DNA of 64,000 nucleotides, from assembly GCF_045037415.1 (NCBI RefSeq), contig NZ_CP173438.1; one strand, given 5' to 3'. Position numbers and translations under genes: made by a program. Source of the stretch: Escherichia coli (GTDB taxonomy: Bacteria > Pseudomonadota > Gammaproteobacteria > Enterobacterales > Enterobacteriaceae). The notes beneath the pieces were generated by a model. It was not told the origin of the DNA, searched no databases, and saw only the letters and a program-made list of their open reading frames with translations. Positions 1 through 18,411 of the stretch are shown one piece after another. Numbering within the stretch: the first letter of the stretch is position 1; the number at the start of each line of letters is the position of its first letter.

Positions 1-266
1 ATGTAAACAAAAGCGGCAATAAATGTTGCCGGAAACAGTGGTGGTGCGGTTGGTAGAGTAAAGTGTTTACGCTGTATTCGACATGAATAAGGCGCACTCT
101 GTCAACAACCTGACCGTCTTTCAGGTGATGATGCTTTATTGCCTGAGTTTCAGTTCAAAATGTGATCTGCCACGTATTTTTATCCGGAAGAAAAATTTTC
201 CATTGTCTCCCCTGTAAAGCTGTGCTTGTATAAATATTGTTAAACACAAAACCAACAAGGTCCCTA

Positions 267-365
267 ATGACTACTTCCATGTTCAACGCAAAACTACTAC
301 CAACTGCGCCATCCGCCGCAGTGGTCGTCGTGCGTGTGGTGGTGGTCGTCGGCAATGCGCCGTAG
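267..365 (+). CDS. ivbL: ilvB operon leader peptide (32 aa, Val-rich)
   Basis: Hand translation MTTSMFNAKLLPTAPSAAVVVVRVVVVVGNAP then TAG; run of Val codons directly upstream of ilvB, as expected for a Val/Leu attenuation leader. Confidence 0.85.
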   Translation: MTTSMFNAKLLPTAPSAAVVVVRVVVVVGNAP

Positions 366-388
366 GGACTGGAACAACACACGATTCC

Positions 389-427
389 AAAACCCCGCCG
401 GCGCAAACCGGGCGGGGTTTTTCGTTT
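389..427 (+). terminator. ilvB attenuator / intrinsic terminator
   Basis: GC stem ccccgcc (393-399) pairing with ggcgggg (411-417), followed by T-run tttttcgttt; lies between leader stop and ilvB start. Confidence 0.75.
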
Positions 428-470
428 AAGCACCTCCCGGAAAGTCGGCCCAGAAGAAAAGGACTGGAGC

Positions 471-2159
471 ATGGCAAGTTCGGGCACAACATCGACGCGT
501 AAGCGCTTTACCGGCGCAGAATTTATCGTTCATTTCCTGGAACAGCAGGGCATTAAGATTGTGACGGGTATTCCGGGCGGTTCTATCCTGCCTGTTTACG
601 ATGCCTTAAGCCAAAGCACGCAAATCCGCCATATTCTGGCTCGCCACGAACAAGGGGCGGGGTTTATCGCCCAGGGAATGGCGCGCACCGACGGTAAACC
701 GGCGGTCTGTATGGCCTGTAGCGGACCGGGTGCGACTAACCTGGTGACCGCCATTGCCGATGCGAGGCTGGACTCCATCCCGCTGATTTGCATCACTGGT
801 CAGGTTTCCGCCTCGATGATCGGCACCGACGCCTTCCAGGAAGTCGACACCTACGGCATCTCTATCCCCATCACCAAACACAACTATCTGGTCAGACATA
901 TCGAAGAACTCCCGCAGGTCATGAGCGATGCCTTCAGCATTGCGCAATCAGGCCGCCCTGGCCCGGTGTGGATAGACATTCCTAAGGATGTGCAAACGGC
1001 AGTTTTTGAGATTGAAACACAGCCCGCTATGGCAGAAAAAGCCGCCGCACCCGCCTTTAGCGAAGAAAGTATTCGTGACGCGGCGGCGATGATTAACGCC
1101 GCCAAACACCCGGTGCTTTATCTGGGTGGTGGTGTGATCAACGCGCCTGCGCGAGTGCGTGAACTGGCGGAGAAAGCGCAACTGCCTACCACCATGACTT
1201 TAATGGCGCTGGGTATGTTGCCAAAAGCGCATCCGCTGTCGCTGGGTATGCTGGGGATGCACGGTGTGCGCAGCACCAACTATATTTTGCAGGAGGCGGA
1301 TCTGCTGATTGTACTCGGTGCGCGTTTTGATGACCGGGCGATTGGCAAAACAGAGCAGTTCTGTCCGAATGCCAAAATTATTCATGTCGATATCGACCGC
1401 GCAGAGCTGGGCAAAATCAAGCAACCGCATGTGGCAATTCAGGCGGATGTTGATGACGTGCTGGCGCAGTTGATCCCGCTGGTGGAAGCGCAACCGCGTG
1501 CAGAGTGGCACCAGTTGGTGGCGGATTTGCAGCGTGAATTCCCGTGTCCAATCCCGAAAGCGTGCGATCCATTAAGCCATTACGGCCTGATCAACGCCGT
1601 TGCCGCCTGTGTCGATGACAATGCGATTATCACTACCGACGTGGGTCAGCATCAGATGTGGACCGCGCAAGCCTATCCGCTCAATCGCCCACGCCAGTGG
1701 CTGACCTCCGGCGGGCTGGGCACGATGGGTTTTGGCCTGCCTGCGGCGATTGGCGCGGCGCTGGCGAACCCGGACCGCAAAGTGTTGTGCTTCTCCGGCG
1801 ACGGCAGCCTGATGATGAATATTCAGGAGATGGCGACCGCCAGTGAAAATCAGCTGGATGTTAAAATCATTTTGATGAACAACGAAGCGCTGGGGCTGGT
1901 GCATCAGCAACAGAGTCTGTTCTACAAGCAGGGCGTTTTTGCCGCTACCTATCCGGGCAAAATCAACTTTATGCAGATTGCCGCCGGATTCGGCCTCGAA
2001 ACCTGTGATTTGAATAACGAAGCCGATCCGCAGGCTGCATTGCAGGAAATCATCAATCGCCCTGGCCCGGCGCTGATCCATGTGCGCATTGATGCCGAAG
2101 AAAAAGTGTACCCGATGGTGCCGCCAGGTGCGGCGAATACTGAAATGGTGGGGGAATAA
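471..2159 (+). CDS. ilvB: acetolactate synthase I large subunit (562 aa)
   Basis: ATG start; ThDP-enzyme sequence (GIPGGSILPVYDAL..., GDGSLMMNIQE motif); length and position before ilvN match ilvB. Confidence 0.95.
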   Translation: MASSGTTSTRKRFTGAEFIVHFLEQQGIKIVTGIPGGSILPVYDALSQSTQIRHILARHEQGAGFIAQGMARTDGKPAVCMACSGPGATNLVTAIADARLDSIPLICITGQVSASMIGTDAFQEVDTYGISIPITKHNYLVRHIEELPQVMSDAFSIAQSGRPGPVWIDIPKDVQTAVFEIETQPAMAEKAAAPAFSEESIRDAAAMINAAKHPVLYLGGGVINAPARVRELAEKAQLPTTMTLMALGMLPKAHPLSLGMLGMHGVRSTNYILQEADLLIVLGARFDDRAIGKTEQFCPNAKIIHVDIDRAELGKIKQPHVAIQADVDDVLAQLIPLVEAQPRAEWHQLVADLQREFPCPIPKACDPLSHYGLINAVAACVDDNAIITTDVGQHQMWTAQAYPLNRPRQWLTSGGLGTMGFGLPAAIGAALANPDRKVLCFSGDGSLMMNIQEMATASENQLDVKIILMNNEALGLVHQQQSLFYKQGVFAATYPGKINFMQIAAGFGLETCDLNNEADPQAALQEIINRPGPALIHVRIDAEEKVYPMVPPGAANTEMVGE

Positions 2160-2162
2160 GCC

Positions 2163-2453
2163 ATGCAAAACACAACTCATGATAACGTGATTCTGGAGCT
2201 CACCGTTCGCAATCATCCGGGTGTAATGACCCACGTTTGTGGCCTTTTTGCCCGCCGCGCTTTTAACGTTGAAGGCATTCTCTGCCTGCCGATTCAGGAC
2301 AGCGACAAAAGCCACATCTGGCTACTGGTCAATGACGACCAGCGTCTGGAGCAGATGATAAGCCAAATCGACAAGCTGGAAGATGTGGTGAAAGTGCAGC
2401 GTAATCAGTCCGACCCGACGATGTTTAACAAGATTGCGGTGTTTTTTCAGTAA
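2163..2453 (+). CDS. ilvN: acetolactate synthase I small regulatory subunit (96 aa)
   Basis: Starts 4 bp after ilvB stop; ACT-domain-like sequence [39 protein letters not shown]. Confidence 0.93.
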
Positions 2454-2461
2454 GTGATTTT

Positions 2462-2500
2462 CTCGCCTGGATGGGATATTTACATCCGGGCGAGCTTATA
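2462..2500 (+). terminator. putative intrinsic terminator after ilvN
   Basis: Inverted repeat ctcgcctggatg / catccgggcgag (one G-U wobble) immediately after ilvN stop, followed by a moderately U-rich tract. Confidence 0.45.
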
Positions 2501-2890
2501 TTCTGCAACTCAAATTATTCAGAGTATATATTCGTCCATTGAAGACAACATTGATTTCTTATTCATATCATCAGGCCAATTCACTTCACGGCCCCAAATA
2601 CCTGGAGCAGTGTTGATAGATTTCTCTAAAAACTCATCGTCAAAATTCATAAAGCTATTAATCCATAACCATAATTTGTTATTTGTCATATGCAATGCAT
2701 TTGTAGCACTCTCTGTCGTTATCAGGTTAAAGGTGTCAATAATATTTGTACTGTCTAATGATTCATAAACAATACAGCGAATGGTGGCGTATGTGGAATG
2801 GTGATTTTGCGCAAAAAAAGCTATACCTTGAATTTGTTCCCAGTCGTACTCTTTATATTCAGGCTTAGTATGTTTGTAGAATGGGTAGTG

Positions 2891-3379
2891 CTACCAGAAG
2901 GTATAGGTCGATTTATGACTCATATCATTAAGAATATAATTACAAATATAGACCTTTCCTGTTTTTCTATTAAAACGAATTGGGTAATGTCGCGGGGCAA
3001 AGATAAAATAATTTAGGATAGCAGCAAAAACAAAAGACATGAAAAAAATTGCGCAGTAAGCAATATGTAGCAGTAACTCAGAGTCTGCGCGGTATCTCCA
3101 CGTATCTAAGTATCGTTCGAAGTTAAATATAATGTCATATATAAAGAATAAAACAGAGCCAAAACATAAAATAACGATAGGTAAAAAAAGAACGATGCTC
3201 AGAATGTTCATGCCATAAAATGACGTGTAGTTTCGTGTTATCTCACAGTAGTTGTCATTAATATATGTTAATTTATCACTGTTTGATAACTTCTCACTAT
3301 TGCTTTGTGTTCTTTTGTTTATTTCATTAATGAGTCGTGGAACAAGAGTTTGTTTTATTAAGTGAGGGTGAGTGTGCAT
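2891..3379 (-). CDS. hypothetical small membrane protein in AT-rich ilvN-uhpA spacer
   Basis: 162-aa ORF with two hydrophobic helix-like segments in a strongly AT-rich 1.4-kb spacer; no recognisable family. Confidence 0.3.
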   Translation of the reverse strand: MHTHPHLIKQTLVPRLINEINKRTQSNSEKLSNSDKLTYINDNYCEITRNYTSFYGMNILSIVLFLPIVILCFGSVLFFIYDIIFNFERYLDTWRYRADSELLLHIAYCAIFFMSFVFAAILNYFIFAPRHYPIRFNRKTGKVYICNYILNDMSHKSTYTFW

Positions 3380-3862
3380 ATCTGCTCCTTTTTTACAGAC
3401 AATATCACGCAGGGATTTTTTTGTACATTAATCGGTGGGTTTTATTATTAAAATGTAATAATGAAGCAGGCATGCTTGTCATACTTCAAGTTGCATGTGC
3501 TGTGTCTGCGAAATATTCGACCTTTCAGGATTAGTGCAAGCGTTGTTCAAAACGTCACTGCGTTTTTTCCTGCAGCGCGAATTATTTCGAGTATGGTTTT
3601 TATACTGAACTAATAATTTATAATTATACAAACAATCAAACTATAAATATAGAATATACATTTTACTTATTCAAAATGGATACTAACAAGGTATTAATGC
3701 CGCCAGCATTTTTAATGGTTAGTCGATATACAAGTCCTTGAAGGCATCACTTCTTTCCACAAGCAACAAGAGCGCAGCTTTTGGCAGTAACCGCTCAAGG
3801 CTTGAACAACATCGCGCTTATCGTTAAGGTAAGCGCGTTTTATTACCCGCCAGGACAAGACC

Positions 3863-4453
3863 ATGATCACCGTTGCCCTTATAGACGATCACCTTATCGT
3901 CCGCTCCGGCTTTGCGCAGCTGCTGGGGCTGGAACCTGATTTGCAGGTAGTTGCCGAGTTTGGTTCGGGGCGCGAGGCGCTGGCGGGGCTGCCGGGGCGC
4001 GGTGTGCAGGTGTGTATTTGCGATATCTCCATGCCTGATATCTCCGGTCTGGAGCTTCTAAGCCAGCTGCCGAAAGGCATGGCGACAATTATGCTCTCCG
4101 TTCACGACAGTCCGGCGCTGGTTGAGCAGGCGCTTAACGCGGGGGCGCGCGGCTTTCTCTCCAAACGCTGTAGCCCGGATGAACTCATTGCTGCGGTGCA
4201 TACGGTTGCCACTGGCGGCTGTTATCTGACGCCGGATATTGCCATTAAACTGGCATCTGGTCGCCAGGACCCGCTAACCAAACGCGAACGCCAGGTGGCA
4301 GAAAAACTGGCGCAAGGAATGGCGGTGAAAGAGATTGCCGCCGAACTGGGCTTGTCGCCGAAAACAGTACACGTCCATCGCGCCAATCTGATGGAAAAAC
4401 TGGGCGTCAGTAACGACGTTGAACTGGCGCGCCGCATGTTTGATGGCTGGTGA
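3863..4453 (+). CDS. uhpA: response regulator UhpA (NarL/FixJ family, 196 aa)
   Basis: Receiver domain ([10 protein letters not shown]...) plus C-terminal LuxR-type HTH ([40 protein letters not shown]); followed by uhpB/uhpC/uhpT. Confidence 0.95.
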
Positions 4454-12755: not shown

Positions 12756-13079
12756 TTACAGCAGCACCTCCAGCCCGTGTTTTTGCACAATGCTGAGCAG
12801 TTTTAATGAAATGCCATTGGGGCGTTTAGCGCCACTTTCCCATTTTTGTACAGTTGAAACGCTGGTATTGAGATAGTGAGCGAAGACGGGCTGACTCACT
12901 TTTAATTTTTCCCGCAGTGCTTTTATCTCAACAGGTTGTAAGTCTTGCACGCTGGTCAGGCAGGCTTTGTCAAAAGTACGCATCGTTTCGGCAGAAATAG
13001 CATCGACTCTGGACAATCCAGCCGCTGCGCTGTGAATAGCTTCAAATGCAGGACTTTTAAATTTAGTTTTTGCAGTCAT
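12756..13079 (-). CDS. HTH (Xre/NadS-like) DNA-binding antitoxin candidate (107 aa)
   Basis: C-terminal HTH segment (SQPVFAHYLNTSVSTVQKWESG); 17-bp overlap with the upstream toxin-like gene. Confidence 0.7.
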   Translation of the reverse strand: MTAKTKFKSPAFEAIHSAAAGLSRVDAISAETMRTFDKACLTSVQDLQPVEIKALREKLKVSQPVFAHYLNTSVSTVQKWESGAKRPNGISLKLLSIVQKHGLEVLL

Positions 13080-13422
13080 AGCAGATCTCTGTCAGTTCTT
13101 TAGTGTTAATCATTGCTGTCAGTTGGGCTTTCGTCAGGAAGGCATAATGCTTTGCAAGTTCACGAAACCCAGCCAGTTCCTGACTATTAATGTTCGACAT
13201 ATCCTGTTTTGCATATAAAAACGTGTAAAACCAATTGCTTCCCCCTTTCGCCAGAATAATTGCACGCTCACGATTTCGGTGAAGGCGCTTTTTAAAAACG
13301 CCACCACCAAGTACATCAGCTTTACCTTGTTCCGTTTCTAAAATGGCCCGGCACAACTCTTCATCTGTTATTGCATGAGACCTGGCTTCCCTTGCAAACC
13401 ATTTGGTTTTAAACACGCGCAT
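13063..13422 (-). CDS. RelE/ParE-superfamily toxin candidate (119 aa)
   Basis: Small basic protein MRVFKTKWFAREARSHAITDEELCRAI... typical of RelE-like toxins paired with HTH antitoxins; toxin-first order as in HigBA-type pairs. Confidence 0.65.
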   Translation of the reverse strand: MRVFKTKWFAREARSHAITDEELCRAILETEQGKADVLGGGVFKKRLHRNRERAIILAKGGSNWFYTFLYAKQDMSNINSQELAGFRELAKHYAFLTKAQLTAMINTKELTEICYDCKN

Positions 13423-17816: not shown

Positions 17817-18411
17817 ACGGCAAAAATAATCTCCTGAAAGGATACTTACAATCAGTATTACACCAATGACGACAGAAAAAATAGTTCCGATGAGTTTGAT
17901 GATGACAATCCTTGTGCAGTGTTATTTTCACCATGGATTATAATGTTATAGTGAAATTATTGCACCTGTAATTTTTCTTTGATTGTTTTAATCATCACAT
18001 TTACGCACTTCTTCATCTTTGTAGCAGGTAAAAGCCATATATGGATGGCTGGTGTCCGGTGCAGATAAAATGCAACTTATTCTTGATAGCTTGAAAAAAG
18101 AGAGGTTTTTTTGAGTGACGGTTGATGGTCGGTGGCAAGGAAGACGTTTTCGTACACTCGGCAAGAAAAATGAATCACTCTGTCATACTACCAGATACAT
18201 CAGCAGGGTCAGGTTGCTCAGAAATAAGCAGGATGGGGATCACTGAAGAGGCATTTTGGCGATCACAGGAGTCGAATATGAGTGTTAATGTTTTGATTTT
18301 AAATGATTAACCCGTGTTGGATAAATGAGTAACCCCCATAAGAACCCCCAAATGACTTTGCGTAAGGGAATGAGGCTAAAATACACAATCGAATCAATTA
18401 TTAGAGCTTTC

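Follow-up and report, generated by a model that had tools for sequence, protein, structure and literature searches.

Organization of the ivbL–ilvBN Locus

The window, by which we mean the whole 64,000-nucleotide stretch of Escherichia coli DNA that was analysed, carries the genes for the two subunits of acetolactate synthase I, ilvB and ilvN. Directly upstream of them, on the same strand, lies ivbL, a short leader gene with its own putative promoter region, ribosome-binding site and intrinsic terminator. The features of the locus are listed below. RNA structures are predictions, and the paired segments are given on either side of a colon.

161–176, plus strand: CRP-like site TGTGATCTGCCACGTA, at about −72.5 if transcription starts at the putative position ~241; its GTGATC (162–167) is conserved across genera
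202–234, plus strand: promoter region with the conserved motifs ATTGTC (202–207) and CTGTG (219–223) and a −10-like TATAAA (229–234)
243–266, plus strand: 5′ untranslated region (UTR) of ivbL, CA-rich at 243–258, containing the Shine-Dalgarno (SD) sequence AAGG and the variant base T265
257–260, plus strand: SD-like AAGG, plausible for the ivbL ATG at 267
259–370, plus strand: predicted protector (1:2), with helices 259–266:363–370, 267–280:336–349, 286–290:331–335 and 296–310:315–328, and a small hairpin 350–353:359–362
267–365, plus strand: ivbL leader open reading frame (ORF), with ATG start, 32 sense codons and TAG stop (363–365); peptide MTTSMFNAKLLPTAPSAAVVVVRVVVVVGNAP
282–284, plus strand: codon 6, TTC (Phe), which is CTC (Leu) in K-12; a natural polymorphism at a non-conserved position
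294–299, plus strand: tandem Leu codons CTA CTA (regulatory codons 10–11)
321–350, plus strand: Val run of four Val, one Arg and five Val codons (regulatory codons 19–22 and 24–28)
356–405, plus strand: predicted antiterminator (2:3), 356/357–362:399–404/405 and 365–367:394–396, ΔG about −20 to −22 kcal/mol, which excludes the terminator
371–388, plus strand: predicted small spacer hairpin, 371–375:383–388, enclosed by the antiterminator
389–427, plus strand: intrinsic terminator (3:4) and attenuator, stem 389–401:408–421 with bulged G410, loop 402–407, then a T-tract
[quoted passage not shown]
2163–2453, plus strand: ilvN, acetolactate synthase I small (regulatory) subunit (NCBIfam NF006036, 185.8 bits, cut-off 128; RefSeq agrees)

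The leader peptide matched the NCBIfam equivalog NF007579, "ilvB operon leader peptide IvbL", at 80.1 bits (cut-off 60), and the match was full length, with residues 1–32 on profile positions 1–32. A megablast search with positions 150–480 found a match in 5418 of the 5426 complete E. coli genomes; every match was chromosomal. Among the records listed, the RefSeq annotation beneath the match was ivbL and ilvB, and in strain SK1144 RefSeq places ivbL (WP_001312198.1) at the identical position. An Rfam scan of positions 1–4000 (E ≤ 10) returned no family at its gathering score; Rfam lacks a model matching the ivbL leader, and this null result is no evidence against an attenuator. Weak Rfam matches to STnc310 and P6 (380–448, minus strand) were far below gathering and were dismissed as generic hairpin matches.

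Leader Codons and Terminator

The leader contains nine Val codons, GTG GTC GTC GTG at 321–332 and GTG GTG GTG GTC GTC at 336–350, all within ten consecutive codons, in addition to the two CTA Leu codons. When the whole 64 kb was translated in six frames, ivbL was the only source of 10-residue stretches with at least seven Val. The window's ivbL therefore has 11 regulatory codons (nine Val and two Leu) against 12 in K-12 (nine Val and three Leu), and 12 is also the number quoted for K-12 ivbL in the literature (PMC11187965).

Downstream of the ORF, and upstream of ilvB as the first structural gene, sits the terminator. Its GC-rich hairpin has 13 pairs and one bulge (G410), with a ΔG of −21.6 kcal/mol, and the T-tract consists of TTTTT at 418–422, then CG, then TTT at 425–427. 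A Term-seq 3′ end named "ivbL_t" has been reported in K-12 (PMC9023263). Our simple terminator scan did not call the attenuator hairpin, because a bulge-free, ungapped stem leaves a loop of 11 nt and the limit of the scan was 8. Terminator-like sites called by simple scanning numbered six in 2.6 kb, compared with 3.1 expected. The fold of positions 240–430 was 4.8 standard deviations better than dinucleotide shuffles, and none of the 200 shuffles equaled it.

The first-pass annotation of this DNA had described a 32-codon leader with ten Val and two Leu codons, followed by a GC hairpin and a T-tract. The leader length and the Leu pair agree with the sequence, as do the hairpin (389–401:408–421) and the T-tract (TTTTT at 418–422). 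The number of Val codons does not, since only nine can be counted; in the earlier count the K-12 total of 12 was apparently retained, with one codon assigned to the wrong amino acid. The interval drawn there, 267–427, brackets the leader ORF and the terminator, and its end at 427 is sensible given the TTT at 425–427.

Promoter, 5′ UTR and Upstream Haplotype

Conservation of the promoter was investigated in an alignment of 78 sequences, each covering the 137 nt that precede the ATG. Three blocks were conserved: GTGATC (162–167) within the CRP-like site, ATTGTC (202–207), and CTGTG.TTGTATAAA (219–234). The K-12 counterpart of the CRP-like site, at the same place, is CGTGATCAACCCCTCA, and the CRP consensus is TGTGA-N6-TCACA. 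Control of ilvB by cAMP-CRP in K-12 was reportedly described by Friden et al. in 1982. TATAAA at 229–234 is probably the −10 element, which would put the transcription start at about 241. ATTGTC and CTGTG are conserved across genera and do not fit standard −35/−10 spacing with TATAAA, and the gap between ATTGTC and TATAAA is 20–21 nt. A scan for consensus promoters called none at ivbL, which may reflect an activator-dependent promoter.

The small RNA GcvB uses its R1 region to repress both ivbL and ilvB, with predicted binding sites in the ivbL 5′ UTR near the AUG and in the ivbL–ilvB spacer (PMC9299463; PMC11347164). The CA-rich stretch at 243–258 would fit the reported kind of GcvB target.

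The DNA farther upstream differs from that of K-12. At 33–190, the tisB/istR-1 toxin–antitoxin segment, which in K-12 occupies ~635 bp between ysdE and ivbL, is absent and ~100 bp of unrelated sequence is found instead. Positions 135–190 (55 bp, including the CRP-like site) have ~60% identity to K-12, and identity rises to ~99% from 191. Of the 5426 complete E. coli genomes, 1058 had this upstream haplotype without tisB/istR-1, Nissle 1917 and an APEC O2:K1:H5 strain among them. The same upstream type without tisB/istR-1 occurs in E. albertii.

Predicted Alternative RNA Structures

The predicted fold of the full leader combined the long protector, the small hairpin 371–375:383–388, and the terminator. 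The protector appeared in minimum free energy (MFE) structures of the leader from 241–370 through 241–424, and the untranslated nascent RNA from 241–370 to 241–392 folded into it with 359–370 paired. In the absence of leader translation it is predicted to mask the SD sequence and the AUG along with the antiterminator's 5′ arm. The antiterminator is predicted for RNA that is unobstructed from ~356 on and has not yet been extended into the 3′ arm of the terminator.

When the complete terminator was included in equilibrium folding, it won at every ribosome position. Such a set-up cannot show the switch, whose outcome must depend on kinetics, and nascent RNA was folded instead. The resulting model is crude: the 3′ end of the RNA was set at 404–407, the ribosome was given a fixed footprint of the A site plus 13 nt, and polymerase pausing was left out. 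Under these settings the antiterminator formed at −20 to −22 kcal/mol with the A site at every position from codon 1 to codon 26, a range that takes in the Leu pair and the Val codons up to the eighth. Moving the A site to codon 27 weakened it to −15.4 kcal/mol, codons 28–29 left little of it (−7 to −8 kcal/mol), and between codon 30 and the stop it had all but disappeared. With no ribosome on the RNA and the same 3′ ends (394–405 present), the equilibrium MFE structure still contained the antiterminator, and the role of the protector therefore depends on its folding first. Unguided RNAalifold also returned the antiterminator pairs from 73 aligned leaders.

Conservation across Enterobacteriaceae

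For comparison, 78 species-level Enterobacteriaceae genomes were fetched through IlvB, yielding 73 distinct aligned leaders. CTACTA was in frame at all 78 loci and invariant in 73 of 73 distinct leaders, and the C-terminus of the peptide, VVVV[R/S]VVVVVG.AP, was invariant across the 78 species. The mean majority fraction over the 73 leaders was 0.98 for codons 19 to the stop and 0.98 for the terminator, compared with 0.82 for codons 1–18 and 0.71 for the 5′ UTR. Pairwise identity at four-fold sites was 0.95 in the last 14 codons of ivbL and 0.54 in ilvB of the same genomes. Synonymous sites are thus held well beyond the level of the neighboring gene, and the constraint must act on RNA or codon choice, beyond the peptide. 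With the Val run, CUA-CUA, the antiterminator, and the terminator all near-invariant in their nucleotides, the leader offers a clean case of RNA-level constraint on synonymous sites.

The predicted structures were preserved to a similar degree. In the terminator, 11 of 13 pairs were invariant and 98.7% of cells were paired across the 73 sequences; for the antiterminator the corresponding values were 8 of 10 pairs and 98.5%. Slid controls for the pairing of both elements gave 29–52%. The few variable bases of the terminator fall in its loop (404) and bulge (410). No covariation was detected in the terminator and antiterminator of the 73 leaders, both being nearly invariant, and their proposed pairing is supported by invariance and energetics only. 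Compensatory change was seen in the other two structures. Protector pair 305:320 is U–A in 39 sequences, C–G in 33, and unpaired in none, and spacer-hairpin pair 374:385 is A–U in 36 sequences and U–A in 11.

The element travels with ilvB regardless of what lies upstream. The start of the leader is ~200 nt upstream of ilvB at most loci and 262–330 nt upstream at six, which belong to Citrobacter sp. MGH106, Citrobacter sp. NCU1, Klebsiella spallanzanii, Kluyvera spp., and an Enterobacteriaceae isolate. Judged from sequence lengths, these long spacers imply candidate insertions of 60–125 bp between the attenuator and the ilvB start.

Comparison with K-12

The check that the first-pass annotation had proposed was an alignment to E. 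coli ivbL. Over positions 191–480 the window was identical to K-12 (DH10B) except for two bases, T265 and T282, both of which are C in K-12. The K-12 locus (b3672; IvbL WP_001300753.1) has the same position, the same 32-codon frame with nine Val codons, CTA-CTA, and stop, and the same spacer hairpin, antiterminator, terminator, and T-tract. It differs in Leu6, where the window has the Phe6 of IvbL WP_001312198.1, in C265, in an upstream haplotype that contains tisB/istR-1, and in its CRP-like site.

Alleles of base 282 were counted with 41-nt megablast queries centered on it, which are unable to seed across a mismatch there. T282 was found in 3209 complete E. coli genomes and the K-12 allele C282 in 2174, which together account for 5383 of the 5418 genomes. 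An exact match to the query that also carries T265 was found in 756 of the 3209 T282 genomes. T265 is thus restricted to ~756 E. coli genomes, yet it is present in 55 of the 73 distinct leaders of Enterobacteriaceae. Residue 6 of the leader varied widely across the 78 species (Leu in 43, Met in 16, Asn in 13, Phe in 3, His in 2, and Pro in 1). Set against the invariance of CTA-CTA and the Val run, such variability across the family makes a regulatory role for codon 6 unlikely. The Leu6 codon of K-12 is accordingly not a conserved part of the sensor, and Phe6 is the commoner residue in E. coli.

Base 282 is unpaired, in an internal loop, in the predicted folds, and T282 leaves the folding unaltered. 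T265 lies two bases ahead of the ATG; where K-12 has a C·A mismatch, it gives a U–A pair (265:364), which adds two stacked pairs to the predicted protector and −2.7 kcal/mol relative to K-12. We regard both T265 and T282 as natural alleles, and neither is expected to change the mechanism. The possibility that L6F marks a degenerate or altered leader was discarded: T282 is the majority allele in E. coli, position 6 is variable, and the base is unpaired.

The locus had previously been called a canonical ilvB leader and attenuator, present intact. Its identity is borne out by the IvbL profile match, the RefSeq annotation, the near-identity to K-12, and the ilvBN genes downstream. "Intact" is also apt, as the ORF, Leu pair, Val run, stop codon, antiterminator, terminator, and T-tract are all there and fit the family consensus. 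"Canonical" calls for two minor provisos: codon 6 is Phe (TTC) rather than Leu (CTC), and the Val codons number nine rather than ten. The locus had been recorded as an internal control on the reading of the window, and in that capacity it served well, being a textbook element correctly placed and interpreted apart from the Val count and an unspoken premise of identity with K-12. The ivbL/ilvBN attenuator is already known, and the value of finding it here lies only in that control on the placement and interpretation of the earlier annotation.

Proposed Mechanism and Alternative Explanations

In K-12, ivbL is a transcriptional attenuator of ilvB (PMC9299463; PMC11347164), and the signals to which ilvBN attenuation is attuned are Val and Leu (PMC8406616). 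Expression of an ivbL-gfp reporter falls when Val and Leu are supplied and is unaffected by six other amino acids, each with at most five codons in the leader (PMC11187965). The element in the window is almost certainly the ivbL leader and ribosome-mediated transcription attenuator of the E. coli ilvBN operon. We infer that this strain responds to Val and Leu as K-12 does; the anatomy of the locus, its identity to K-12, its predicted alternative folds, and its conservation are direct observations.

Transcription would start at about 241, with a ribosome translating the 32-codon leader behind the still-transcribing RNA polymerase. If charged tRNA-Val or tRNA-Leu were scarce, the ribosome would stall at CUA-CUA (294–299) or in the nine-Val run (321–350). 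Positions 356–367 would then stay free and could pair with 394–405 once these had been transcribed. The antiterminator so formed would block the terminator hairpin, and the polymerase would continue into ilvB and ilvN. With Val and Leu plentiful, the ribosome would reach the TAG (363–365) and cover 356–367, which would allow the terminator at 389–421 to form and transcription to end in the T-tract (418–422). If the leader were left untranslated, the protector helices (259–310 with 315–370) would hold 356–367 and termination would follow. This three-state switch is modeled from kinetic, co-transcriptional reasoning.

Short ORFs and GC hairpins are common, and the simple scan called six terminator-like sites in 2.6 kb against 3.1 expected, which might suggest a chance ORF beside a chance hairpin. 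The probability of this is negligible. No other Val-rich stretch turned up when the 64 kb was translated in six frames, the leader folds with a z-score of −4.8, and near-identity in 5418 E. coli genomes together with conservation in 78 species already refutes a chance origin. It is also very improbable that the ORF goes untranslated and the hairpin acts as a constitutive terminator, for example by closing a small RNA or a transcript that arrives from upstream. The SD sequence and AUG are indeed buried in the predicted protector helix, a strong terminator forms at any ribosome position in equilibrium folding, and the terminated leader transcript interacts with GcvB (PMC9299463; PMC11347164). 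However, the peptide and its frame are kept in 78 species with the nine-Val run and the Leu pair invariant, and a mutually exclusive antiterminator is conserved alongside them. The element also accompanies ilvB whatever is upstream. In K-12, moreover, an ivbL translational fusion is expressed and regulated (PMC9299463), and the reporter responds to Val and Leu (PMC11187965).

A subtler alternative accepts the same attenuator and holds that it is functionally shifted relative to K-12, so that ilvBN would differ in its basal read-through, its sensitivity to leucine, or its catabolite control. L6F drops one of the three Leu codons of K-12, leaving 11 regulatory codons instead of 12, and the K-12 response to Leu saturates at a very low concentration, so that the few Leu codons do matter (PMC11187965). 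Against this, amino acids with five or fewer leader codons drew no response from the K-12 reporter (PMC11187965), position 6 varies freely across Enterobacteriaceae (Leu, Met, Asn, Phe, His, or Pro), and T282 is unpaired and leaves the predicted folds unchanged. The protector that T265 is predicted to strengthen (by 2 bp and −2.7 kcal/mol) also contains the SD sequence and AUG; T265 is nevertheless the majority base in the family, as T282 is in E. coli, and K-12, if anything, is the derived type. Upstream of 191, across the CRP-like site, identity to K-12 is only ~60%, but the CRP-like sites of the window and of K-12 each match the consensus at 7 of 10 positions (counted by eye). We consider such a shift unlikely. 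We hold the same doubt about its specific form, in which Phe6, the U–A pair 265:364, and the diverged CRP-site haplotype without tisB/istR-1 would jointly give ilvBN a different set-point than in K-12. If it were true, the effects could fall on basal read-through, on sensitivity to leucine, or on the link with GcvB and cAMP, and K-12 would be an atypical reference. From the conservation data, a large effect of Phe6, T265, or the upstream haplotype on the set-point is unlikely.

Relation to Other Leader Peptides

The attenuators trpL, thrL, leuL, hisL, pheL, and ilvL all work on common lines: in each, a brief leader that is translated and enriched in codons for the amino acid its pathway makes is combined with alternative protector, antiterminator, and terminator pairings and with an intrinsic terminator ahead of the first structural gene. 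Additional control by cAMP-CRP distinguishes ivbL from the other E. coli leaders, with all six of which it has the leader-peptide attenuator logic in common. It differs from them also in its additional control by GcvB (PMC9299463; PMC11347164). Two of these leaders, ilvL and leuL, have been listed together with ivbL (PMC9299463). Val and Leu are the only amino acids sensed by ivbL, and ilvL responds to Ile in addition to these two (PMC8406616).

A more distant parallel is the leader, or upstream ORF, of Corynebacterium ilvBNC (ilvB-II motif, three-hairpin model). A Val/Leu/Ile-rich peptide and alternative hairpins precede an acetolactate synthase operon there too (PMC11857589; PMC10272879). 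The phylum, the operon, and the leader sequence are different, and the Corynebacterium leader is probably an analogue and not a homologue.

Other Features of the Window

Between ilvN and uhpA, at 2454–3862, the window contains an AT-rich insert of ~1.4 kb where the gap in K-12 is 75 bp. The insert carries a gene on the minus strand (2519–3379) with a DUF6708 domain, which is interrupted by a premature stop, W163* (base 2892 is T, compared with C in SK1144). An NCBIfam search with the 162-aa remnant of this gene returned no match. The gene is probably a pseudogene in this strain. Farther along, the region 12756–13416 between yicN and nepI holds, on the minus strand, a gene pair made up of a RelE/ParE-family toxin and an HTH protein, as annotated in the collinear SK1144 sequence.

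Collinearity with SK1144 stops at 18364. From ~18365 to 64000, the window is occupied by a ~45 kb island at the selC (tRNA-Sec) site, near-identical to that of strain IPCEC48. ARAGORN found no tRNA in the 64-kb window because, by comparison with IPCEC48, tRNA-Sec lies just past its end. Genes annotated in the island include a CbtA/YeeU toxin–antitoxin pair, an antirestriction protein, DUF932 and DUF4942 genes, an EAST1 enterotoxin ORF inside IS remnants, an H-NS paralogue, and IS66 and IS110 elements. A type I restriction-modification system, RhuM, a Tia invasin, a phosphoethanolamine transferase, and an integrase are annotated there as well. Relative to IPCEC48, the island has an extra ~1.5 kb copy of the ISEc45 region at ~44481.
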